A DNA stretch of 64,000 nucleotides. Origin: Naegleria gruberi (lineage: Eukaryota). Positions 40,308-54,801 of this stretch are shown piece after piece. The notes beneath the pieces are model-generated. The model was not told where the DNA came from. It saw nothing but the letters and a program-made list of their open reading frames with translations, and made no database searches. How positions within the stretch are numbered: the stretch's first letter is position 1; the number at the start of each line of letters is the position of its first letter. The stretch is from assembly GCA_000004985.1 (NCBI GenBank), contig GG738845.1, one strand, 5' to 3'. The position numbers were made by a program, and so were the translations under genes.

Positions 40308-42212
40308 CTACAACAATACCTCTCCAATAAATTTACATGATTTAAGAATATCTTGTTTTCCTGATTTTGAAACACGACAATCTGTCAAATCTAAAAATCT
40401 CAAACTCCACGATCTTTTTAAATAATCAATAATCTCATCTCCTATCAGTGTGTGTGAAATAATGAGAAGTTGTAATCTTCTGAAACCCCTTTTTGAATCC
40501 ACAATTCTATTGAATATTGCCTCACAAGCAGTGTTTGCAGCGATGTTTGTATGGCTCATATCCAATGAATGCATTCTTGGAGGTAAGGAGATTGGACTTT
40601 TAAAACAACCATTACTTATCTCATTATTGCGAGCAAGATTTAAAACCTTCAATGTTGATATCTGAAATATGGCATGACAACCAATATCGGTAATGTTATT
40701 CATTGACAAATCCAATTCTTCAATACCCCTATTTTCCTTTTGTGACTGAAAGTGCTCTGATATTTTTTGAGCACTACTAGAGGTCAACCCAGTATCAATC
40801 AGTTTTAGTATCCTTAGTGGTATTTTGCAATTTTCCAAAATAGTTTCAATATGTTGATTTGATATTGTAAAACTATTAATTTCCAAATATCTTAGATTGC
40901 ACGATTCTCTCATACAAACATTATGGTTAATCTTTAATTTGGTAATAAATTTTGAAGGTATTAAATCCTTTTCATTCTGCAAGCTTTTTCGAACATCCAA
41001 ACATTTAATATTTGGAAGCTTTCTTAAAATTGTATTCATTGATTCTGTGAATAGAGAAAGAGAATAATTTCCAGCAATTTTTAATACTTTGCAATTATTG
41101 ATATTATCCAACAATGTTAAAAATCCAGTAAAATAATCAAGTGAACAAAATGATAGATCAAGGTACTCCAATGACTTGTTAGTACAAGTCTCATATTTTT
41201 CATGATCCAATTTGATACCAATATTGTATTTCAATGAAAGTTTCTGTAAATTTTTCATAGTGGTTAATATTTCAACCAAACTGTCGTCTGTTAAATCACA
41301 CCCATCCAATGATAACTCTTTTAATGATACTTTTGATGAGCATAAGCTATGTACAATTGATTTAAATAATATTCGAGTTTCTTTAGAATATTCATCCTCC
41401 AGCTGATTATTTTCAATCGAACCAAAAAGATAATTTAGTTTCAGTACTTGTAATTTGGGTGAATTGTAAAATAATTTATCGAACCATCCAACACAATTCT
41501 GAATATAATCCAGAGAATTTCTGTAAAACTTCCGTTGACATGGAAATGTCATCCCAGAGAGATCTAAATATTTTAAATTATCCAACTTGTTTTCAATTAA
41601 AGCGTTGAAATTATGCAATAAAGAACTTTCATCGGATTTAATATTTAAATATCTAATAATTGAAATAAAACTTTGTTCTCTATTAATTATATTCATTCTA
41701 CTTTTTAAAAATTCATTATTCCATAATTTTAAAACTCTATACGAATAGGGAGAAAAATCCAATTTCTCAATTGTTAAATTATTTTTTCCATGTTTTAAAT
41801 ATTGACTCATAAAATTGATGGGACTAGACAACTTGGAATTCAGAGTTAATCCCCTACAGTGTGATGGTATAAAGTTGGAAAGTACAGATATTGTAAGATT
41901 AAAATCTTGATTCTTTCCATAGGGCCATTCATATAAATTACAATATTTAATATTTGGCCAAACCAGAAATATTCTACTTCTTCCTCCTCCTTCCTTGTAT
42001 CCAAATAGTAATTTAATAAAATAGGATTTCAAATAATATAATGGTGTTGATTCATCATAGAGAGAATATAAATTTTCCAGTAATGATTGTTGTTGATTTT
42101 GAATTTTACAATCCTCCAAATATTCAATAACATAAATTGAAATATTCAATTCTAAATATTCCATAATACAATAAACAATTTCGATTGGTAAATCAACATG
42201 GGCACGAAGCAT
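40308..42212 (-). CDS. Leucine-rich-repeat protein (ribonuclease-inhibitor type) with an F-box-like N-terminus
   Basis: The N-terminus LPIEIVYCIMEYL is F-box-like, followed by repeated L..L.L..N.I units (LDLSMNNITDIGCHAIFQISTLKVLNLARNNEI...). Confidence 0.55.
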   Translation of the reverse strand: MLRAHVDLPIEIVYCIMEYLELNISIYVIEYLEDCKIQNQQQSLLENLYSLYDESTPLYYLKSYFIKLLFGYKEGGGRSRIFLVWPNIKYCNLYEWPYGKNQDFNLTISVLSNFIPSHCRGLTLNSKLSSPINFMSQYLKHGKNNLTIEKLDFSPYSYRVLKLWNNEFLKSRMNIINREQSFISIIRYLNIKSDESSLLHNFNALIENKLDNLKYLDLSGMTFPCQRKFYRNSLDYIQNCVGWFDKLFYNSPKLQVLKLNYLFGSIENNQLEDEYSKETRILFKSIVHSLCSSKVSLKELSLDGCDLTDDSLVEILTTMKNLQKLSLKYNIGIKLDHEKYETCTNKSLEYLDLSFCSLDYFTGFLTLLDNINNCKVLKIAGNYSLSLFTESMNTILRKLPNIKCLDVRKSLQNEKDLIPSKFITKLKINHNVCMRESCNLRYLEINSFTISNQHIETILENCKIPLRILKLIDTGLTSSSAQKISEHFQSQKENRGIEELDLSMNNITDIGCHAIFQISTLKVLNLARNNEISNGCFKSPISLPPRMHSLDMSHTNIAANTACEAIFNRIVDSKRGFRRLQLLIISHTLIGDEIIDYLKRSWSLRFLDLTDCRVSKSGKQDILKSCKFIGEVLL

Positions 42213-42234: not shown

Positions 42235-44130
42235 ATGTTCCACCAAAGAATGTTTTTTTCTCTAACAATATATTGTAAAGATATGTTTATTGGTATTTTT
42301 ATTGCCTTAGAGAGCAAATCCAACAAGATTTACCAACACAATTTAATCTTGATTTCAAGAGAGAATGAGATGATTCATGCACCCTTGCTGCTAATAATAA
42401 AAAATTATTTAGAAAAAATGAAATTAACACAAATCAACTATCAAGAGGACGAAATAACAAAGGATTATTTGATTGGAGATTCTTGTCTAATCAATAATTT
42501 CGAATTAAAAGATACTAGGAATGATGAAATGAAGAGTTTAGAATTTATTTCCGATAACAATTCATCAATTTGTTTGTATGGTTTCCTTCAAAAACATCCA
42601 AGAAATACAACAAATTCTTTCTTCGTTAAGATTTTACATTTAAAACAGTGGAATTTTAGTGAAAGTGGAGATATTATTGTACAATCATCAAGATATTGGT
42701 ACAAATTATTGAATCCATCCCCTGAATATGCTCCAACATTTGATTTGTTCGAGCAAAGACATAATCTATGGAGAGAATTAAAACCTATTTTGATGAGTTG
42801 GACGAGCGATTTATCTAGATGTGAGGAAGAAGATGAATTGAGCATGATTAAAAACAACATTACTATTGAAAAAGTTTTGCAAAAATTACCGAACACAAAT
42901 GAAGATTATCTATTAGACCATGCCCAATTTTTATATGATCAAATACTTCAAGATACCTCATCCTTTTCCATTCATGGATCTGATGTGAATCAAATGATGA
43001 ACACTCCATTACTATTCTCATTAAAAGAGAACCGATTCAAAAAGAAAGAAAATCAAATGATCAAAATTACAAAAGAAACTGCCTTGATGGATGGTATAGA
43101 GCTATCAGATTCTGACTCATATGACGAAAAGGATTTTGGTACCACATCTGAAGATGAAAGTGAGGATACTAATAGTGAGCCCACACAAAGTAAATCAAAA
43201 AGAAGAAAATATAAAAAGAGAGAAACTCCTAATAAGAAGAAAAAAACCAATCATGAAGAAAAGGGTAAAAGACAAAAGAAGGCTATGAAACAAGTATACA
43301 CAACAGCACACAAAATGGAAGAAGGAATACCTTCACGAAATTATTTTTTAGAAAAAGAATTTTCACCTCAACTCCTTTCTGAGTTGAGTGTGAAATATGA
43401 ACCTGGAATATGTCATTCTGGTAAGTTGATTGATTTTACATTCCTTAATAACTTGAATTTCTAAGTATGCTTCCAATGCAAAAAGAGAAGAATAGCTTGC
43501 TATAAAGAAAGGCCTGCATGTTCCAATTGTCTGAAAGAAGGTCTTCAATGTACATACCCAGAACTTATGAGGCTTTCACGTATGTTTCTTATTTTGTAAT
43601 TAAATATTTAATATATTTACCTCCCAATAATAGCATGTGTTCCATGTGGAGAACGCGGTGGTAAAGTATGCAATAGAGAAAAACCAACCTGTGATATCTG
43701 TATAGAACGTAAGTATGATATTTTAATTTGGCATTTTAACATTTTGATATCAGGAAAAACCAATTGTTACTATTTTAGCTCTGATACTTTTCTCATTCTT
43801 GCAGAAAAGAATATTAATTCAGCAAAGGAACAAAACGAAGAAACCATTGAAAAGAAAACTAATATCACCACATGGAACGATGAAGCTTATTCTGAAATTT
43901 TAAAGGAAATGAATGAAAAGATTAACAAATATTCCAATGTTAAAGAAACAGAAATCTCAAAAATCCTTGAAAAAACAACCACTCAACAAAAGGTAACAAC
44001 AATGGAAGATCTTGAAGATTTGGAAGAACAAGTGGTAAGATGGAAAGCAAAAGCTGAAAAGGAAAAGAAAAAAAGGATTGGAATCAAAGAAAAATTAGAA
44101 CAATATATTGAAAAACTTGATGAACAATAG
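42235..44130 (+). CDS. Fungal-type Zn(II)2Cys6 binuclear-cluster protein with two tandem Cys6 motifs near the C-terminus. Four exons (about 42235..43420, 43466..43579, 43634..43707, 43754..44130). An apparent 1-nt frameshift falls inside exon 3, so this is either a sequencing error or a pseudogene
   Basis: In frame after the track stop at 43462-43464: CFQCKKRRIACYKERPACSNCLKEGLQC (C-X2-C-X6-C-X6-C-X2-C-X6-C). A GTAAGT donor at about 43421 removes the stop. After a 54-nt GTATGT intron a second cluster reads CVPCGERGGKVCNRE, then a frame change in an A4 run, then PTCDICIER...C. The last exon is track ORF 43744..44130, which starts at TTG. Confidence 0.5.
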
Positions 44131-44141
44131 TAAATGTTACT

Positions 44142-45581
44142 TTATTCAAATTTTAAAACTAGCTTTCTAATTTTACACAAATCTCTAACCTTAGGTGGGG
44201 CAATTACAGGTTCGTAATGTGTGTTATCAACACCAAAATTAAATAATTCTTCGCGGTGTTGATTCACATTATTTTTAATATTGCCCATTTCTATCTCTGT
44301 AAAAATTCTACTTGATCTATAGTCATCTTCATTTTTCATTCTAATATTTGGTACTATTGAGTTTCTTTGACCTACCAAATCATCCCTCAAGATGATATTC
44401 GATAAATTCTTCCATTCTTCTTCAAAATTTTCAAAATCATCACTTTTAGAACTTGTCCATTTTCCAGTGACAAATGACGGAATAATTGGACCATATATTG
44501 TGTGGTCTTTTTCACCACCTCTTTTAACTTTTCTAGGGTGTAATGCTTTTGTTGTATAGTCAACATCCACAAAAGTCAATTTTGGTTTTTGTTGTTTTGA
44601 TGAATGTGAATTTTCATTAGCCTTATCTGAGTATGTATAAATGTTATTTTCGTTTTCATCGAGAGATTTATCACTAGAATCATCAGAAAAATCGATTTCT
44701 TCAACATCATTATCACTTTCATTTGCTCTTAATTGGGAGATAATGTTGATATCTACATCAAATTGTTCGTCATCATCTTTATCTGCAAACCGTTCTCTAG
44801 TCTCCTCGTTAACATATGTTTTTGAGGATGTGTTCTCCTGTTGTTGGGATAGAGTTTGACATTCTGCTGATTTCCAAAGATTTATCGCCCTTCTGGACAA
44901 GACATTAGTGACTGGTAACCTTGCTTGTGTGACAGTTACTTTTTCTTCAATTACTTCAGTAGCTCCAAACCAAAATCCTAATCCAATTAATAGTATTGAT
45001 ATGAGAATAATTACTGATATAAATCCTATAGAATAAAGAGTAAAATGAGAAATTATAAATCCACACGATATGCCAAACAATGTGCAAACAGATGTTATGG
45101 AAAGGTTAAATATTTTGTTAGGGTGAATTGACCGTTTTGTTGAAGTTGATTTTTGTTGAATCATTTCCTCATCCTCAAATTGGCTCAAGTTTTGGTAGTC
45201 TTGTAAGATTTTATCAACATCTATTACTGATTGAGGTAATTCTTGATCATTATTCTGTTCTGTGAAAGTGTCATCAGGTTTGTTTTGTTCCTTTTCATCA
45301 TCACTACTTTCAAAAAATTCCATGTCATCCGACGAATTTTCAGAATTATTAAAGTTTTTAATTTCCTGTAAGGAAGTAAACTGTGTTTTTTGATTTTTTT
45401 CTTCCAATTTTCTCCTTTGCTCAGATATAATATCATCATACTTATTGTCTATGCTAGTAGTCTCTATTTCTTGGTCACTTTCATCCCCTTCACTGTTGGC
45501 GAAAAATTCTTCTTCATCTATATTATCATCCTCTTGTGTTTCTTGAAGGGAATTTGAAGACATTTTTTTATCTGTTTTCAA
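44142..45581 (-). CDS. Acidic protein with one central TM segment, hypothetical
   Basis: 479-aa ORF with an ATG start. It has Asp/Glu/Ser-rich flanks and a central hydrophobic block, ITSVCTLFGISCGFIISHFTLYSIGFISVIILISILLIGLGFWF. Confidence 0.4.
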   Translation of the reverse strand: MKTDKKMSSNSLQETQEDDNIDEEEFFANSEGDESDQEIETTSIDNKYDDIISEQRRKLEEKNQKTQFTSLQEIKNFNNSENSSDDMEFFESSDDEKEQNKPDDTFTEQNNDQELPQSVIDVDKILQDYQNLSQFEDEEMIQQKSTSTKRSIHPNKIFNLSITSVCTLFGISCGFIISHFTLYSIGFISVIILISILLIGLGFWFGATEVIEEKVTVTQARLPVTNVLSRRAINLWKSAECQTLSQQQENTSSKTYVNEETRERFADKDDDEQFDVDINIISQLRANESDNDVEEIDFSDDSSDKSLDENENNIYTYSDKANENSHSSKQQKPKLTFVDVDYTTKALHPRKVKRGGEKDHTIYGPIIPSFVTGKWTSSKSDDFENFEEEWKNLSNIILRDDLVGQRNSIVPNIRMKNEDDYRSSRIFTEIEMGNIKNNVNQHREELFNFGVDNTHYEPVIAPPKVRDLCKIRKLVLKFE

Positions 45582-45667
45582 TAATAATAATTCTTTGTAT
45601 GCTAAATAATAACATAAAAATTAATTATTTTTTAATAATTTATAATTTTATTCTAGTGATAATGGAT

Positions 45668-46510
45668 TTATCTTCTTTCTCTTCTTTCTCTCTTTGGATA
45701 TTCCTTCTTAACCTTCTTTTCAGAAAGGAACTTTGAGTGTTCAGCGAATGGAGAAACGAGTTGAGGATTGACGGTCCACAAATCTGGAGTCTTGAAGTTG
45801 TAAGTCTTCTTGATGGCAGCGAAAGTAGCAGAAACAAAGTTAGCAAGAGTCTTGGTGTTACCAACAGATGAAGTGAAAACATCAGAATAACCACCCAATG
45901 ACAAGAGCTTCTTTGGAACAGGGGAAGCAACCAAACCAGAACCACGAGGAGCAGGAACCAATCTGACTCTGACGGAACCGCACTTACCAGTCAATTTACA
46001 TGGAACAGTGTGTGGTTCACCGATCTTGTTACCCCAGTAACCCTTTCTGGTTGGAACAATGGACAACTTAGCCAAAATGATGGCACCTCTGATAGCAGTA
46101 GCAACTTCAGAAGCAACCTTGATACCCAAACCACAGTGTTGGACGGAGTCACCAACAACAACGACAGCCTTGAAACGAGTTCTTTGACCAGCAGTAGTTT
46201 GCTTTTGGACTGGAGAAATTCTCATGACTTCATCAGACAACTTTGAACCCAAGAAGTGATCAATGATTTGGTGTTCCTTGACTGGGATAGAGTGGACAAA
46301 GATGTCTCTAATATCCTTGACCTTACCTTCCTTGACCAATCTACCGAGCTTGGTGGTTGGGACCCATGAGCCGCTTTCGTCCTTTCTTGGACCTCTCTTT
46401 GGACCTCTCTTTCTTCTATCACCACCCTTTTGACCGAAGGTGTTTCTTCCTCTTCTTTCGCCAGCTTCTTGCTTTTGAACGTCAGTTGTTTGTTGCTTGT
46501 TATCGCTCAT
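45668..46510 (-). CDS. RPS2: 40S ribosomal protein S2 (uS5)
   Basis: ...[29 protein letters not shown]..., [27 protein letters not shown] and [36 protein letters not shown] are near-identical to eukaryotic RPS2. The gene has no intron. Its codon usage is strongly biased (AGA, GGT, TTG, AAG, GCT, GTC/GTT) and it is locally GC-richer than its neighbours. Confidence 0.95.
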
Positions 46511-46850
46511 GTTGACTTTTTTTTTCGAACAAATTTTTAAAGTTGAGTCGTTCTTTTTCGCTTTTTACAATAATTTTTTTTATTCCAACAACAAACCTCG
46601 GTAAACAATTTGAACTTGCCGCCTTCAACAGAACAATTTTAATGAAAAACCAATCTTGTATTCTTATAATTAATAGGAAGATAAACATTATTCCTTTCTC
46701 TTTTCTGTTTTAAAAAGATTCATGATGACTCTACTACTTTTCATCGTAGCCATAACTAATAAAAATTTCATCTTTCAATCTCTACTGACATTTTATTAAA
46801 AAAAAGACTTTTGCACCTACCTGCCATCCTTCATCAGTGTACATTCAAAT

Positions 46851-47635
46851 ATGGCACCACAAAAACAAAGTTTGGATCATGTTCATGAAAAGATTGTTGT
46901 TCTCGGTTCTGGAGGTGTTGGTACGTACACAAATTTATTGTCACAATAATCCCACCAATTTGAAAAGGAAAATCTGCTGTCATTTTGCAGTTTATTCAAT
47001 CGGTTTTTGTGGAAGTTTATGATCCAACATTGGAGGATTCATACAAGAAGGAGATTATTATAGATTCCACTCCTGTTACTTTAGAAATTATTGATACAGC
47101 CGGACAAGGTAGGTTTAATTTTGAAAAAGAATAACTTATTATTATTATTTTGAATTTAAATAGAGGAGTTGACAAGGTAAGAGATTTTTATGGTGGAAAT
47201 ATTTACATACATTTCATCAGTTTACGTGATAATTATGTTAAAAATGGGGATGGATTTCTTCTTGTTTATTCAATAACTTCGAGTCAATCTTTTGAGGAAA
47301 TTGAAGATTTGATTGAACAAATTATGAGAGCTAAGAATATTGATTCTGAAAACCCAACAGAATTATCAAAAAATTTATCTGCTGTCATTATTGGAAATAA
47401 AGCAGATTTACAAAATGAGAGAGCAGTATCTAATCAATCATTACAAAAACTAGGAGAAAGATTCAAAGGTAAAATTCCAATATTTGAAACATCAGCAAAG
47501 GAGAAAATTAACATTGAGGAGTCTTTCATGGCATTGGCAAGACAAATTTTTGATAAAAAGACAGGTAAACAGCCTGCCAAAAAAGAAGGTGGAACATCTT
47601 CAAATAGCTCAGAATCGTGTTGTATTCTTTTATAA
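46851..47635 (+). CDS. Ras-family small GTPase (Ras/Rap-like) with a C-terminal prenylation motif (-CCILL). Four exons: 46851..46920, 46968..47108, 47164..47176 (a 13-nt micro-exon) and 47221..47635
   Basis: The spliced product reads MAPQKQSLDHVHEKIVVLGSGGV|GKSAVILQFIQSVFVEVYDPTLEDSYKKEIIIDSTPVTLEIIDTAGQ|EELT|SLRDNYVKNGDGFLLVYSITS...IGNKADL...ETSAKE. The G1, switch I, G3, G4 and G5 motifs are intact only with this splicing. Introns are 47, 55 and 44 nt with GTACGT, GTAGGT and GTAAGA donors. Confidence 0.8.
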
Positions 47636-47778
47636 ATAATTTTATTACCATACTTTAATTTTAAACTACGTTGCATGAGGAAATGCCTTATTGTTAGTAT
47701 TGATATTCATGTTGCTTTTTTCTTCAATTATGGAAATTTTCAAAATCGCAATTAATTGCGTTTGTATTATTTTAAAAA

Positions 47779-48528
47779 ATGATTAAACGTGTTTCATCAT
47801 CTGCTTTAAAAACTAAATTACCTTCTCTCAACCTCTTGTTAGAAAAGTGTTATCAGACAAAATCCTTTTCCACTGAAGTAAATAGTGATGGAGTAGATAA
47901 AAGTGGATTAATTTGGAGAGAACCGGAAGAACTTGAAGATGAAATGAATATCAAAGGAATGATAAGAGTAGATCATGCAGGTGAATTAGGAGCAGTGACC
48001 ATTTGCAAATCTCATAAAATTGTACTAGGAGAGGATCCGATTGTTAATGAAATTTTGAGTCAAGAGGTTGATCATTTTGCAACTTTTGACAAAATGATAT
48101 TGGAACGAAGAGTAAGGCCAACCATTTTCAGGTCATTATGGCAACCTGCTGGTGTCATGTTAGGTGTTGGTACTGCCATGATGGGTAGAAATTATGCTAT
48201 GGCTTGTCATGAAGCAATTGAAAATACTATTTTCGATCACTACAATGAACAATTAAGAGATATTTATGACATGTCTATTAAGAAGACAGAGGAAAAGAAA
48301 GAATCAGACTCGGAAACTGATTACTATTTCAAATCAGATCATCAAAGACAGGAAATTCAAGAAAAAGATCTCAGAGATATAATTAAACAATACAGAGATG
48401 AAGAATTACATCATCATGATATTGCAAGAGATGCCAATACTGAAAAGGAAAATTTACTTTACAAATTAACTTATGGATTTGTATCAACAGGATGTTCTAT
48501 TGTTATTGCTCTTACCAAGAGACTTTAA
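47779..48528 (+). CDS. COQ7: 5-demethoxyubiquinone hydroxylase COQ7 (Clk-1/Cat5), mitochondrial
   Basis: IRVDHAGELGAVTICKSHKIVLG...LSQEVDHF...RVRPTIFRSLWQPAGVMLGVGTAMMGRNYAMACHEAIENTIFDHYNEQLR...YRDEELHHHDIA includes the di-iron carboxylate motifs. The N-terminus is presequence-like. Confidence 0.85.
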   Translation: MIKRVSSSALKTKLPSLNLLLEKCYQTKSFSTEVNSDGVDKSGLIWREPEELEDEMNIKGMIRVDHAGELGAVTICKSHKIVLGEDPIVNEILSQEVDHFATFDKMILERRVRPTIFRSLWQPAGVMLGVGTAMMGRNYAMACHEAIENTIFDHYNEQLRDIYDMSIKKTEEKKESDSETDYYFKSDHQRQEIQEKDLRDIIKQYRDEELHHHDIARDANTEKENLLYKLTYGFVSTGCSIVIALTKRL

Positions 48529-48615
48529 CTCTAGTTAATAATGATTTTATCATTGTTCATTGGGTAATCAGGGACATTATTTCGAATAATTACTTGATTT
48601 TGAAAATCAATAAAA

Positions 48616-49545
48616 CTACACTTGTTGTGTGGGTACTTTTACAAATTTAAAAAAACAATCGCTGTTTGACCCTATGGTATTTTCACTTCCAAACCAATAC
48701 TCAAATCTCTTTTGTTTCATAATTTGTTTGATTTTGCAATGTGTTGTTTCCTCTTTCCTACTAATCTTGAAAATTTTACTCTTTTTAACTCTAACCTTCT
48801 CCCAACATATAAATTCTGATGGTGATCCATACTTGGAAGAAATGATTAACTTCATATTTTCAAGCAAACTAAAAGGAAAATTATTTGAAACATCACTTGC
48901 AGTAATTGTGACATTCAATTCTGGACAGGTGAGCATTGGAGGTTCCTTTACTTCATTCCTTTTGTCATTGAATTGGATAAGAAAGGCATTGATAGACTTA
49001 TCTTCTCCAACCATAAATGATGCTTGAATGATAGTCTCTCCTCTATTTACATCCAAATCATACATCATTGTATCCATGATACCAATATTTGTATTAGGCC
49101 CATTAATCGATGAATGAAAAGTTCTAAAAGCATTAATTCCAAATATTTGGATCAATTCTGAAAATGTACTAGAATCACAGAGAGCCAATTTGGAAAATGG
49201 ATCGAATATTATTGTTTCTCGATTGCCATCATCTTGCTTTTGTAATTGAATATATTGAATATATGTTAATGATTGAAAATATTCTTGTAATTTGGAAAAT
49301 ATTTGACCGTCAGGACTATAAAAATTACTCTTAATGATTGATTGTATTGGTGTAATACTCTTTTCCACATCCAGAATATGAGATATATGAATCCATATTG
49401 GATTTTCCTTGACCAATTCTCGTATTTCCTTATTGATATTGAATAAAACAGAAATAAAATCAATCTTATCCACTGCAAATTCCAAAACAGTTAAAATAAT
49501 TTCTTTTGGTAAATCCGTGAACTTTTGCTTGGTTGGTAGCAACAT
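48616..49545 (-). CDS. Hypothetical protein with an F-box-like N-terminus (LPKEIILTVLEF)
   Basis: 309-aa ORF. No other recognisable domain. Confidence 0.35.
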   Translation of the reverse strand: MLLPTKQKFTDLPKEIILTVLEFAVDKIDFISVLFNINKEIRELVKENPIWIHISHILDVEKSITPIQSIIKSNFYSPDGQIFSKLQEYFQSLTYIQYIQLQKQDDGNRETIIFDPFSKLALCDSSTFSELIQIFGINAFRTFHSSINGPNTNIGIMDTMMYDLDVNRGETIIQASFMVGEDKSINAFLIQFNDKRNEVKEPPMLTCPELNVTITASDVSNNFPFSLLENMKLIISSKYGSPSEFICWEKVRVKKSKIFKISRKEETTHCKIKQIMKQKRFEYWFGSENTIGSNSDCFFKFVKVPTQQV

Positions 49546-49663
49546 GTTAACAATAGCTTGATTTGATGCGATGGTAGTGTGGATGTTTTTTTAATTTTTT
49601 GAATTTAAAAATAGGATTCTGTATTACAATAAAATTCTAATAATAAAAATTGCTTGACAAAAT

Positions 49664-51385
49664 ATGACGGAACAATGCAACACAACAAACCAAAATTTGA
49701 ACATCACTATGGAAGATATCCAATTAACTACAACCCCTCCTTCGAAGCTACAAACAATAGATAGGAGAAAAAACTTTGTTAATAGAAATGATCTGGTGAG
49801 ATTGATTGTGCAAGCATTGTATACTTTGGATTATAAAGAAAGTGCAGATTTGTTGGAAAAAGAGTCTGGCATTGATTACCTTTCAAAAGATATTTTACAG
49901 TTAAAAAATTGTATTTTAAAAGGAGATTGGAATCAATCACTCAATATAATTGATCAAACACTAAACAACTCAAATTGTAAGAATATTAATGCCGTAAAGT
50001 ATTACATACTCGAGGAAAAATATATGGAACAACTTTGTGATAGAAATGCAGAAAAAGCATTGATTACTTTAAGAGAAGAGATTACTCCTCTTGTAGTATC
50101 AATTCCCACTCAAAACAATTATACTTCTACTGTTACTAACAATAGTACAATAACTGTACATAATTTACAACAATTAGCAAGTTATCTTGTTTGCACTAAT
50201 ATAGAAGATTTGAAAAATTTGTCTAAATGGAAAAGTATCGAAGGTGGATCAAGAAATGAACTTTTGGAACAAATTCAAAAATTGATTTCCCCTTCATTGA
50301 TTATTCCAGAAAACAAATTAGAACAACTATTATTAACTGCCGTAGAAAATCAAAAAAGAGATTCAATGAGTGATGAGGATATTGATGAAAATGATATGGA
50401 TGAGTCTGAAGATGGAGTTGTATTGTTGAGCAAAAAGTTTTCAATTAATGAAGAAACTTCCATTAGGAAAATTCCAAACAAGATACTACTTACTTTGGAG
50501 GATCACGGTGACGAAGTTTGGATATGTAAATTTTCTAATAATGGACAATTACTGGCAACTTCTAGTATTGACCATTGTATCAATATTTATTCTGTTGAAG
50601 AAGTGTTATCGATAGAAAAAACGAGCCCAAAATTCAAATTACTTTCCTCTGGAAATGTAGTATCACTTTGCTTTTCCCCGGATGATAAGGATTTGCTAGC
50701 TGCAACATGTGACGGAAACGTACACATCTGGAATATTGTTAGTGGTGAACAAAGGGCTTGTTTGAAAAATTTTTCAAATATTGTGGCAGCTTTTTGGAAT
50801 GAAAGTGGGAATCAATTTATTACTATTTCTTCTGAAAAAAGCTCACAAATATCTGTTTGGGAGAAAGATTCAGTTACCATTACAAAATCATTCAAAATTG
50901 ATACACGTATTCAGGATGCTTCTTTATTGAAAGATAATTTAATTATCGTGGCTACTCATGAAAGACAATTACTTTGTTACAATTTGGAGGAGAAAAAACT
51001 TGTAGAGAAAATGAGTGAGGATTATCTCATAACAAGTCTCTGTTCTAGTAAGACTGGAAGATTTGTATTGGTTTCTTTCTGTTCTGAAGATGAAGATGAA
51101 CCTGCTTTAATTCATTTATGGGATTTAAGGGAAAAGAAGATTATTTCAACATTTGAAGGTCTTTGGTCTTTAAAATATGTGATGAGACCAATTTTTATGG
51201 GAAGAGATTTGGTGAGTTGTGGAAGTGAAGATTGTAAAATTTATATTTGGAACAAATCTACTGGTGAGCTTATTGAGACTCTTACTGGTCATTCAGGAGT
51301 TGTAAACTCTGTCGATTACAATGTAAAGTTTGGACTGATAGCTTCTGCCAGTGACGATACAACAGTAAAGATTTGGCGTGATTAA
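49664..51385 (+). CDS. LisH-CTLH-WD40 protein (WDR26/Gid7-like)
   Basis: LisH-like RNDLVRLIVQALYTLDYKESADLLEKESGI, then a CTLH region, then at least 6 WD repeats (...LATSSIDHCINIYSV..., ...LAATCDGNVHIWNI..., ...IASASDDTTVKIWRD). Confidence 0.65.
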   Translation: MTEQCNTTNQNLNITMEDIQLTTTPPSKLQTIDRRKNFVNRNDLVRLIVQALYTLDYKESADLLEKESGIDYLSKDILQLKNCILKGDWNQSLNIIDQTLNNSNCKNINAVKYYILEEKYMEQLCDRNAEKALITLREEITPLVVSIPTQNNYTSTVTNNSTITVHNLQQLASYLVCTNIEDLKNLSKWKSIEGGSRNELLEQIQKLISPSLIIPENKLEQLLLTAVENQKRDSMSDEDIDENDMDESEDGVVLLSKKFSINEETSIRKIPNKILLTLEDHGDEVWICKFSNNGQLLATSSIDHCINIYSVEEVLSIEKTSPKFKLLSSGNVVSLCFSPDDKDLLAATCDGNVHIWNIVSGEQRACLKNFSNIVAAFWNESGNQFITISSEKSSQISVWEKDSVTITKSFKIDTRIQDASLLKDNLIIVATHERQLLCYNLEEKKLVEKMSEDYLITSLCSSKTGRFVLVSFCSEDEDEPALIHLWDLREKKIISTFEGLWSLKYVMRPIFMGRDLVSCGSEDCKIYIWNKSTGELIETLTGHSGVVNSVDYNVKFGLIASASDDTTVKIWRD

Positions 51386-51438
51386 AAATATTTTCAACAT
51401 AAAAAATCTATTACTTAGTTACACCTCGGAACGATACT

Positions 51439-52397
51439 ATGAACAATCAAGTTAATAATAAATCAAAGCCAAAGTACATGTATAAAATTATTTTTGTTGG
51501 AGATAGTACTTGTGGAAAGACGTATGTAATTTATGATCAAATAATAATTGATATTATTTTGGATTTTATTAAAGAGCATTTATTCAACAATATGTAAATA
51601 ATTACTTCTCCAAGACTTATAAATCAACTCTAGGTGTGGACTTCTCATATAAAGAGTATGACTATGATGAAAATACATGTTTTAATTTACAAGTAGGTTA
51701 ATATTTATGTAACTTATTAATTATTCCAAATCAAAGTTTTGGGTAAGTTTTGTATTTTCATATTATGTTTAATCGAATAATAGGATATTGCAGGACAGGA
51801 AAGGTTTGTTTTGGATATTATTAATTATTATAAAAATTGTTAAAGATTCGGAAGTAAGTACTTTCCCAATTGTTCCAATAATTAACAAAGATTAAAGCCA
51901 TGACAAGTGTTTTTTATAGAGATGCTGTTGTTGCTGTGATTATGTATGATGTGACAAATCCTGTGACATTTGATCATACTAAAGATTGGAAAATTGATAT
52001 TGATTCAAAAGTTTTTCTTCCACCACTCAATGAAAATGATTCTGATGATATTCCAATACCTTGTATTCTAGTTGGAAATAAGATTGATTTAAACAAACAT
52101 GAGAAGCTTAATTTCAAACCAAACGAATTGGATGAATATGTTAAAAAACATGGATTTGCTGGATGGGTTGAAACAAGTGCAAAAGATAGGACAAATATGG
52201 ATAAGGCTGTAAAAATGATAGTGGAACAGGTATTAAAATATCACGAGAAGGAAGTTCAAAGAGAAATTAGACCAGAAAATCCAATGGCAATCAATATCGA
52301 TAAGCTTGTTGGAGATATGCCAAAGAGTGACGATGGATTGAATTCTGAGGATGCCAAGAAAAAGAATTCGTCTTCAGGATCTTGTTGTTCTAAATAA
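51439..52397 (+). CDS. Rab32/38-like small GTPase. Six exons: 51439..51521, 51575..51692, 51737..51742 (6 nt), 51784..51803 (20 nt), 51846..51853 (8 nt) and 51898..52397
   Basis: Spliced: [98 protein letters not shown]...VGNKIDL...ETSAKD...GSCCSK. The reconstructed [13 protein letters not shown] matches Rab32 ([23 protein letters not shown]). Donors are GTATGT, GTAGGT, GTAAGT, GTTTGT and GTAAGT, and introns are 41-53 nt. The micro-exons are inferred from motif restoration. Confidence 0.7.
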
Positions 52398-52446
52398 TCA
52401 TTTATAAAACATATGGAAATTCCAAACTTGACATTCAAGTAAAAAA

Positions 52447-53068
52447 ATGACTTTAAGCAAACACACAATCATTCCTCCAACAATCATTAACTTCTTTTCC
52501 GATGATAATCATGAGTCACAATTTGTTATTGAGTATTCTATTCATAAATGTCCTCTACTGTTAAAATCCGATATGAACAAAATATTTCCAAGTGCCAAAC
52601 AAATATTCGAGAAGCAACAACTCTACATAATACCAACCTTTCAACATGTATCATGCCCTCTGTTCGTTTTTGATGAGGAAAGTAGTAAACAAAAAGATGA
52701 CAGACTTCATAAGGTTTGTTTTATAATTATTTGAGAGTTATATCGTTTCGTAGTTTTATTCATTTTCTAATTGTTTGAAAGAGTATATTGACACTTTATC
52801 ACAAGGCTACTGGAGTGATTATACGGATCCAGTAACTGGTTATCCAATGTTATCAGAGAGAGGAGGAATGCTTTACAGTGATGTGGATGGTTGTGAAATG
52901 TTTTTAAAGAGCTACACCGTTGATTATTCAATTGCAGAGTGTAGACTCATTTCCCATCCACTTTGGAAAACTCAAGTATATCCTGCTACCTTTTTTACAA
53001 CATGCCCTCCAGAACTACTTGCCGATTTTTTCAACCATTATAAACTTGTGGACAGTAATATTATTTAA
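52447..53068 (+). CDS. MMADHC: MMADHC (cblD) homologue, a cobalamin-trafficking protein. Two exons: 52447..52713 and 52784..53068, with a 70-nt GTTTGT...AAAGAG intron
   Basis: IEYSIHKCPLLLKSDMNKIFPSA...QQLYIIPTFQ and GYWSDYTDPVTGYPMLSERGGMLYSDVDGCEMFLKSYTVDYSIAECRLISHPLWKTQVYPATFFTTCPPELL align with human MMADHC ([23 protein letters not shown]... and [21 protein letters not shown]...[27 protein letters not shown]). The second track ORF starts at TTG. Confidence 0.7.
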
Positions 53069-53115
53069 ATTAAAATAAAAAATTAAATTATATTATTTTA
53101 AAATTAATAAAAAAA

Positions 53116-54801
53116 ATGAAAATCATCAAATCATCAACATCCTCCGTTTTGAATGCTTTTAACAGAGGAAGAACAGTATCACCTAAAGTTATTTTTCTTT
53201 CTGGAAATAAATTTACCATCAATAACAATAATTATCAAATAATTGCATTTAACAATGTTGGTGGAATGCTGAGAGCATTTTCTTCATTAAATTATTATAA
53301 TAATATTTCCCAAAGTTCTACAATTATTAATATCAATACTGGTATTGAACAAGACATTAGGAAAGCAAAAGACTTGCTCAAGGAGGGGTTTTCCGAGTTT
53401 GAAAATAGGCAATATTTAAAAAGCTATGAGCTTTTTATTAGGGCCTTTTTACTTTTTGACAAACATCAATTATTAACAAGAGAAATTAAGTTAAATGATG
53501 ATAATTTGACAGTTGACTCTTTATTAGCACTTTCAATTGGATTGAATAACTTTGCCGAAACTCTTAGATATATGGCAAAAAGTGGTATTGTGCCTCCAAC
53601 TTTGGCCAAATTGGGACTTAAAGCACCGTCAGTAACAACAGGAACTACAGCTCCTCTTGTTTATACCTCAAAAGATTCAATGAAATTTTATACACAGGCA
53701 GAACAATTATATGAACAGTATCAAAATTTTCTATTAAAGAACCAATCAAATAATAATAGAAAATTATTGGAATTGACACTTTGGAAAGGTACTTTATATA
53801 ACAATGTTGGACTTTATTTTATGGAAAATAGAAGAGATTTTTTCACTGCAACCAAATGGTTTGAAAAGAGTGCAACAGAAAGAGGAAAACTTGTGAAGGA
53901 ATTGGAGGAATTAGAAAATGACAAGGCCACCAAACACGAGGAAGTTGTAAATCAATATGGAGAATCTGAGGACCCATTGAATGCCAACGATCAAAGAATA
54001 CACTTTGCAATCACAAGAAACAATATTGCTCAATGCTATTCTAATTCTAAGCAAATTACTCTTGCCTTGGAAAGTTACAATTACGCTTTGAAGGTTTTTG
54101 AGGATATTAAGGCGAAATTGAAAGAGAAAGAAATCAAATGTATTACACCAGAGAGTAAGAATACTATTGCTAACAGACTTCACATAATTGTATTGAATAA
54201 TATGGGATTAATGTATCATGATCTTGGAAAGTATGAACAATCATTGACATACTTTTCTGAAGCATTTTTCATGTTCACAGGTGGACCAGTGAATGGAGAA
54301 AAACTTGGTGAAGAAGGGCTTATTGTTAATAATCAAATAGGAACTCAATATTTTGGAGAAGAGTTGGGTGTTACCTTGTCAAATATGGGTACAAGTTTAT
54401 TCATGTTAGGTAGATATAGAGAATGTGAACAATTTTACAGACAAGCTATGGGCTTATTTGATGTTATTTATGAAAATACTCCAAACCATAAGAATATTGC
54501 ACAAGTTAGTCTTCAATTAGCCCTTTGCTTGAAGCAAAAACATTCAGCAAAGGAGGGAGAAAAGCCAAACAAGGATTTACTGGCTGCTGCTACTTCATTA
54601 GCCCTCGCCAAACAGGACCCATCCTATTTTATCAAACTTGATTCGAATGCATCAGAAGAAATGATTGGAGATGAAAAGCAAGTTAGGCACTTGATAGAAA
54701 AGGCCAAGAAAATAACATCAACCTTTGCGGATGCAAATACAGAAGCAGTAGAGAATACCAAAAAGTCAATGTTTTCTAAAATGTTTGGAAAGAAAAAATA
54801 A
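53116..54801 (+). CDS. TPR-repeat protein (kinesin-light-chain-type repeats), about 560 aa
   Basis: Several 34-aa TPR units such as NNMGLMYHDLGKYEQSLTYFSEA and SNMGTSLFMLGRYRECEQFYRQA. Confidence 0.5.
   Translation: MKIIKSSTSSVLNAFNRGRTVSPKVIFLSGNKFTINNNNYQIIAFNNVGGMLRAFSSLNYYNNISQSSTIININTGIEQDIRKAKDLLKEGFSEFENRQYLKSYELFIRAFLLFDKHQLLTREIKLNDDNLTVDSLLALSIGLNNFAETLRYMAKSGIVPPTLAKLGLKAPSVTTGTTAPLVYTSKDSMKFYTQAEQLYEQYQNFLLKNQSNNNRKLLELTLWKGTLYNNVGLYFMENRRDFFTATKWFEKSATERGKLVKELEELENDKATKHEEVVNQYGESEDPLNANDQRIHFAITRNNIAQCYSNSKQITLALESYNYALKVFEDIKAKLKEKEIKCITPESKNTIANRLHIIVLNNMGLMYHDLGKYEQSLTYFSEAFFMFTGGPVNGEKLGEEGLIVNNQIGTQYFGEELGVTLSNMGTSLFMLGRYRECEQFYRQAMGLFDVIYENTPNHKNIAQVSLQLALCLKQKHSAKEGEKPNKDLLAAATSLALAKQDPSYFIKLDSNASEEMIGDEKQVRHLIEKAKKITSTFADANTEAVENTKKSMFSKMFGKKK

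Follow-up and report, generated by a model that had tools for sequence, protein, structure and literature searches.

A Ras-family gene of Naegleria gruberi with a 13-nt micro-exon in switch II and a patchily distributed intron next to it

Results

A four-exon Ras-family gene

We read a Ras-family gene of four exons on the plus strand of Naegleria gruberi, running from an ATG at 46851 to a TAA stop codon at 47633-47635 of the window (the whole 64-kb stretch of DNA that was analysed), and spliced it mechanically (Table 1). The spliced coding sequence of 639 nt is in frame and encodes 212 aa, including both GSGGVGKSAV and DTAGQEELTSLRD. An earlier sequence-only reading had placed the gene, the end of its first intron and a 13-nt exon between introns of 55 and 44 nt, and all of its coordinates proved exact to the base. 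It had also claimed that the P-loop motif is completed only when the first intron ends at 46967, and that switch II requires the 13-nt exon. Splicing confirmed the former, with the remaining P-loop codons lying 3′ of the 46967 acceptor. The latter was borne out by enumerating the joins between exon 2 and exon 4, with all GT/GC..AG boundaries and one or two introns allowed. An open frame was kept in 15 of the 65 combinations, and a switch II with the length and sequence of the orthologs came from the 13-nt-exon solution only.

The 13-nt segment is an internal exon within the limit of 15 nt for a micro-exon, has canonical GT..AG introns on both sides and is needed for the reading frame. Skipping it results in a frameshift into stop codons, as does the use of an acceptor ending at 46990 instead of 46967, and each of the three introns, if retained, brings in a stop codon. 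An in-frame alternative is a single intron at 47113-47220 with a weak GTTTAA donor, which produces DTAGQGSLRD; judged from the sequence, this form may occur as a minor isoform. The Willaertia ortholog and the environmental relatives described below have the same residues EELTSLRD, and the 13-nt-exon model thus agrees with them far more than chance would allow. Scans for RNA genes, with Rfam over 44000-54000 and for tRNAs over the whole window, detected none, so the introns are not explained by an RNA gene. It is very probable, from the reading of the DNA, that all three short GT..AG introns of the four-exon gene are removed and that the product is the functional 212-aa G-domain protein XP_002683041.1.

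Table 1. Positions of the Ras-family gene, the small exons of the Rab32-like gene and the uS5/Ras gene pairs (window positions unless a contig is named)
Feature	Position	Strand	Description
Ras exon 1	46851..46920	+	70 nt; ATG to first base of Gly24; encodes MAPQKQSLDHVHEKIVVLGSGGV(G); exact match to XP_002683041.1
Ras intron 1	46921..46967	+	47 nt; phase 1, in the codon equivalent to Ras Gly15; GTACGT..AAAAG
Ras exon 2	46968..47108	+	141 nt; P-loop remainder (G)KSAVILQ, switch I YDPTLEDSY, DTAGQ and first Glu base
Ras intron 2	47109..47163	+	55 nt; 15% GC; phase 1, in the codon equivalent to Ras Glu62; GTAGGT..AATAG
Ras micro-exon	47164..47176	+	13 nt, AGGAGTTGACAAG; (E)ELT(S), Ras residues 62-66, switch II
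Ras intron 3	47177..47220	+	44 nt; phase 2, in the codon equivalent to Ras residue 66; GTAAGA..ATCAG
Ras exon 4	47221..47635	+	415 nt including TAA; SLRD..., NKAD (G4), TSAK (G5), C-terminal CCILL
Rab32-like 6-nt exon	51737-51742	+	TTTTGG, Phe-Trp
Rab32-like 20-nt exon	51784-51803	+	
Rab32-like 8-nt exon	51846-51853	+	
uS5/Ras pair, N. gruberi	45668-46510 (uS5); 46851 (Ras)	-; +	
uS5/Ras pair, Willaertia	L002:4598-5458 and 6001		
uS5/Ras pair, L009	L009:38-901 and 1507		

The spliced product scores 166.8 bits with the Pfam Ras profile (PF00071), for which the curated cut-off is 21.6; the match (E = 3.9e-49) covers positions 1-161 of the 162 in the profile. Its G motifs follow one another in order and with the correct spacing (G1 GSGGVGKS, G2 YDPTLEDSY, G3 DTAGQ, G4 NKAD, G5 TSAK), and only in the spliced product do they align gap-free to K-Ras and Rap1b. 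The alignment with K-Ras, Rap1b and ten heterolobosean homologs is gap-free across both of the splice-dependent motifs, the P-loop and switch II. The best solved relative is Rap1b (2e-49), followed by H-Ras and K-Ras. Unlike Rap, which has Thr at Ras residue 61 (DTAGTEQF), the N. gruberi protein has Gln there (DTAGQEEL), as Ras proper does, and we classify it in the Ras family without assigning it to a subfamily. The C-terminus CCILL contains the CAAX box CILL with another Cys before it, and geranylgeranylation is predicted from the CILL motif alone. As a member of the Ras family, the 212-aa protein would function as a canonical GTP/GDP switch.

Annotation status of the gene

An exact-sequence look-up found the 212-aa product to be identical over all residues to XP_002683041.1 (EFC50297.1, UniProt D2UXJ8), named "ras family small GTPase". 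Because the proteins are identical and only one GT/GC-AG model reproduces this RefSeq protein, the reference annotation must already contain the 13-nt exon. The gene model is hence already known and dates back, in the reference annotation of N. gruberi, to the publication of the genome. A literature search returned no paper on Naegleria micro-exons, on this micro-exon or on intron positions of Ras genes in Heterolobosea. The added value of the present analysis is modest and consists of the patchy distribution of intron 2, a possible hot spot in switch II and a correctable mis-annotation in the adjacent Rab32-like gene.

In the exact look-up, the 212-aa protein occurred in annotation-derived sources only (NCBI, UniRef, eukprot and MetaClust), with none from transcript assemblies. 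A 161-aa protein of 98% identity (P0001), the representative of the 90% cluster that includes the N. gruberi protein, was rejected as cDNA evidence: it is a prokaryote-style ORF call that reads through intron 3 and spans exon 4 on the metagenome contig L003. This contig (ENA ERZ929261, run ERR1078381, PRJEB11402; 706 nt) corresponds to 47050-47755 of the window and is the same DNA over the stretch compared by eye, so N. gruberi or a near-clonal strain was present in that sample. Public RNA-seq of N. gruberi is available under PRJEB23822.

Besides the 212-aa product, five ORFs of the window that have no introns match RefSeq proteins of N. gruberi NEG-M exactly, all from one scaffold of 1,555,553 nt, which establishes the origin of the window. 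Unlike these five neighbours, the long ORFs at 47779-48528 (+) (COQ7), 42235-43464 (+) and 40308-42212 (-) have no exact match in the protein collection, and the last two show weak or LRR domain matches; the annotated N. gruberi models for these three presumably differ in start site or introns. The other listed window ORFs of at least 180 aa are long and uninterrupted, and the Ras and Rab32-like genes therefore stand out locally for their intron density.

Splice signals around the P-loop

Eight short introns could be defined in the window, three in the Ras gene and five in the adjacent Rab32-like gene. With lengths of 41-55 nt, these introns begin with GTA(A/C/G/T)G or GTTTG and end with an A-rich AAAG, ATAG or TCAG, and the splice signals and intron lengths of the Ras gene match those of the five Rab32-like introns. 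As all eight introns end in this A-rich manner, AAAAG/GA at 46967 is a typical acceptor for N. gruberi. The P-loop had been described as hidden inside intron-looking sequence, which on this comparison is nothing unusual. The decoy acceptor TTTTGCAG (46983-46990) within exon 2 consists of the codons ATT TTG CAG for Ile-Leu-Gln, and the relative L001 encodes the same three residues as ATT CTT CAG, again just 3′ of the intron 1 acceptor. The intronic look of the P-loop codons arises from the expectation of an animal-type polypyrimidine-CAG acceptor, which the Ile-Leu-Gln codons resemble by coincidence.

Micro-exons in the neighbouring Rab32-like gene

The sequence-only reading had pointed to a second small GTPase gene nearby whose micro-exons cut through a conserved motif. 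A tblastn scan located this Rab32-like gene at 51439-52397 (+), and it does contain micro-exons in the same motif as the Ras gene, of 6, 20 and 8 nt. Our model comprises exons of 83, 118, 6, 20, 8 and 500 nt and introns of 53, 44, 41, 42 and 44 nt, and gives ...NLQFWDIAGQERFGTMTSVFYRD. The N. lovaniensis ortholog (XP_044552657.1; L010:1001-2044) is annotated with exons of 62, 118, 6, 20, 8 and 515 nt. All five introns lie at the same positions in the two species, which indicates that the micro-exon cluster is conserved within the genus Naegleria. The suggestion that such micro-exons are lineage-specific does not hold for this gene, because the five introns are not specific to N. gruberi and are old within Naegleria. 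The Willaertia Rab32-like protein encodes the same FWDIAGQERFGSMTS.

The N. gruberi RefSeq model (EFC50300.1 / XP_002683044.1; 243 aa) is built from exons of 83, 118, 24 and 507 nt. The 6-nt exon is left out, and with it the Phe-Trp of the invariant WDxAGQE; the 20- and 8-nt exons are mis-spliced through a weak GTTTTG donor, so that the protein reads ...NLQDIAGQERFIKAMTS. After correction the model encodes NLQFWDIAGQERFGTMTS, and its exon pattern of 118/6/20/8 equals the N. lovaniensis annotation. The N. fowleri protein (P0121, XP_044562610.1) is without Phe-Trp before DIAGQERF, whereas both residues are present in the orthologs of N. lovaniensis and Willaertia. Going by these protein sequences, the same 6-nt exon has probably been missed in the N. 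fowleri annotation. Exons of 6-8 nt thus escape the N. gruberi annotation and probably that of N. fowleri, and the missed exon takes away the invariant Trp of WDxAGQE, which matters for Rab phylogenies built from these proteomes.

Intron positions in relatives of the Ras gene

In the homolog search with the 212-aa protein, the closest sequences apart from P0001 were from Willaertia magna (63%) and from Naegleria paralogs (54-55%), and no N. fowleri or N. lovaniensis ortholog was among the matches. The high-scoring P0003, P0005, P0006 and P0008 were rejected as orthologs, being artefacts with tandem or duplicated Ras domains. Closer relatives come from three environmental contigs, L001 (JGI 3300002220), L008 and L009 (both ENA; samples ERZ27250632 and ERZ27315067), which represent one close lineage: their proteins are 97-100% identical to one another, 72-73% to N. 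gruberi and 61-62% to Willaertia. A metagenome scan with the ortholog alignment added only one distant Ras-like locus, L004 (31% identity), and no further close relatives.

Intron 1 is found at the identical position in all three contigs with the same GTACGTA start. Intron 3 is also at the identical position, with a length of 54 nt in L001 and L009 and 82 nt in L008; on these sequences, intron 3 was already in place before N. gruberi and the L001 lineage diverged. All three contigs lack intron 2 and have CAAGARGAATTAACAAG as a contiguous stretch, that is, GGACAAGARGAATTAACAAG/GT is uninterrupted and QEELT is encoded without a break.

The Willaertia magna ortholog ABK040_001758 (P0004; L002:6001-6862) has 62-63% identity, the identical DTAGQEELTSLRD and the same C-terminal CC-aliphatic-aliphatic-X ending as the N. 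gruberi protein. Its three introns, at Ras codon 31 (phase 2), codon 63 (phase 2) and codon 134 (phase 1), share none of their positions with N. gruberi, and the gene is without a micro-exon, its smallest exon being 96 nt. The Willaertia intron in the second Glu codon (phase 2) is located 4 nt downstream of the position of N. gruberi intron 2. No intron occurs at that position in three heterolobosean paralogs. In an Acrasis paralog the Gly codon of DTAG is split by a phase-1 intron, and in a Willaertia paralog a phase-1 intron lies at Ras residue 64. Rap1 of the sponge Ephydatia muelleri (L011:2147-2200) has codons 61 and 62 separated by an intron of phase 0, at a distance of 1 nt from the position of N. 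gruberi intron 2, whereas the positions of introns 1 and 3 are empty. The sponge intron and N. gruberi intron 2 make a near-coincident pair across supergroups.

The head-to-head arrangement of the gene for ribosomal protein uS5 and the Ras gene is kept in N. gruberi, Willaertia magna and L009 (Table 1), and the uS5 of L009 is 82% identical to the N. gruberi protein. Downstream of the Ras gene the neighbours differ: N. gruberi has COQ7 there, Willaertia a PKD channel and L009 a GST. When the L009 GST was searched for homologs, several Naegleria paralogs matched at 60-62% identity and Acrasis at 56%, values that do not assign L009 to a taxon.

Clustering of introns in switch II

We compared five heterolobosean Ras-family genes by their intron loci (46921-47220 of the window, L002:6135-6689, L005:1658-1817, L006:1727-1879 and L007:1648-1743). 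They have 11 distinct intron positions, five of which fall within the seven codons 60-66 of Ras in switch II; the only introns that coincide in this comparison are the pairs of N. gruberi and L001. A scan statistic over the G domain gives P of ~0.003, or ~0.03 when a 5′ bias of introns is allowed for, with a window size that was chosen post hoc.

Discussion

Origin of intron 2 and of the micro-exon

The 13-nt exon is what remains between two short, independent introns in the coding region of switch II that are 13 nt apart. Splice sites of introns as short as 41-55 nt would probably be paired across the intron (intron definition), in which case a tiny exon would pose no obstacle. Among the available sequences, intron 2 is seen in N. 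gruberi only, and intron 3 is common to the closest known relatives. The sequence-only reading had proposed lineage-specific gain or retention of introns at these positions and a comparison with other taxa. Intron 2 is indeed lineage-restricted, being absent at its position from L001, L008, L009 and Willaertia. The environmental relatives share introns 1 and 3 and lack only intron 2, and Willaertia shares none of its three introns with N. gruberi. As to gain or retention, however, the proposal was overstated: the environmental contigs without intron 2 amount to one independent lineage, and Willaertia has an intron only 4 nt away.

Intron 2 could be a recent gain in the N. gruberi lineage at a proto-splice-like site (CAAG/AG), 13 nt upstream of the older intron 3, so that the micro-exon would be a recent side effect of introns still being gained at a hot spot in switch II. 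We consider the case for this explanation evenly balanced. The position is empty in the three environmental relatives, the Willaertia outgroup, the three heterolobosean paralogs and the sponge Rap1. One gain therefore suffices to account for the distribution, instead of one gain and one loss, and on the sequences compared parsimony slightly favours a gain in the N. gruberi lineage. The clustering of five of the 11 intron positions within codons 60-66 also speaks for a gain, although this statistic is post hoc. The near identity of L001, L008 and L009 reduces the lineages without intron 2 to a single independent one, and the introns located 4 nt (Willaertia) and 1 nt (sponge Rap1) away make a shifted old intron conceivable. 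Furthermore, the 64-kb window contains no donor copy or introner-like repeat: short-word blastn searches of all eight introns against it returned only chance AT-rich matches of ~20 nt or less, which indicates the absence of an introner-like family at the scale of the window.

An explanation that we take seriously, while giving it a minority share of our confidence, is that an older intron 2 underwent precise loss in the lineage of L001, L008 and L009, for example by recombination with a reverse-transcribed mRNA, with the Willaertia intron 4 nt downstream as its shifted homologue. Precise loss is the commonest intron change in intron-poor protists. The relatives show the clean in-frame junction CAAGARGAA, and near-coincident introns are present in Willaertia (+4 nt) and in sponge Rap1 (-1 nt). 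However, loss mediated by reverse transcription usually takes adjacent introns together, and both flanking introns are kept in the relatives, including intron 3 at a distance of just 13 nt. In addition, the sliding of introns by phase-changing shifts of 1 or 4 nt is considered rare, which weighs against a shifted homologue.

That the 13-nt segment is not constitutive at all, the main transcript having the single intron 47113-47220 or being an unproductive skipped or retained form, and the annotation being a homology-guided artefact, seems to us very improbable: one single-intron model is open and in frame and the demonstrably wrong annotation of the adjacent Rab32-like gene proves the pipeline fallible, but this model relies on the poor GTTTAA donor and would delete three residues of switch II, whose length is invariant across all aligned Ras-family members, whereas both splice sites at the micro-exon fit the local consensus and the relatives encode EELT contiguous with DTAGQ.

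A broader version of the recent-gain explanation regards switch II (Ras codons 60-66) of heterolobosean Ras-superfamily genes as a recurrent and ongoing hot spot of intron insertion, in which the recent gain of intron 2 created the 13-nt exon and the same process produced the 6-, 20- and 8-nt exons of the Rab32-like gene. We put this forward tentatively and think it rather unlikely as a whole, with the five intron positions in seven codons as a hint of such a hot spot. If it were true, Naegleria would be a tractable system for catching the gain of spliceosomal introns in an otherwise intron-poor genome. The Ras gene itself is a clean case of a micro-exon formed by a pair of short introns whose second member is found in some close relatives and missing from others, and provides raw material for studies of intron gain and loss.

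Comparison with known Ras-family genes and micro-exons

Human Rap1b, H-Ras and K-Ras (solved structures such as 4m8n, 3brw and 4q21) have the same G domain with G1-G5 and the same CAAX tail as the N. gruberi protein, with 45-49% identity. The latter differs from human Ras and Rap in having Leu for Ile in the effector loop (YDPTLEDSY) and an insertion of 9-12 residues before the NKxD strand, which is common to other heterolobosean members. The introns of human RAS genes lie after codons 37, 97 and 150, and none of these positions coincides with an intron of the N. gruberi gene.

The Rab32-like genes of N. lovaniensis and N. gruberi resemble the Ras gene in that several introns of 41-66 nt are packed into the switch II region of a small GTPase. 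Their intron set is the same in both species, whereas that of the Ras gene differs even from its closest relatives. In plant genes, small micro-exons (≤15 nt) are supported by RNA-seq and often mis-annotated (PMC8831610); the main text of that study makes no mention of Ras, Rab or GTPase. The plant micro-exons and the N. gruberi Ras exon are both tiny frame-preserving exons in a conserved domain that gene finders easily miss. The N. gruberi exon, like the plant ones, would be constitutive; the plant cases have RNA-seq support, whereas the support for the N. gruberi exon is comparative only. The Rab32-like gene exemplifies the same kind of mis-annotation as the plant genes with micro-exons (PMC8831610).
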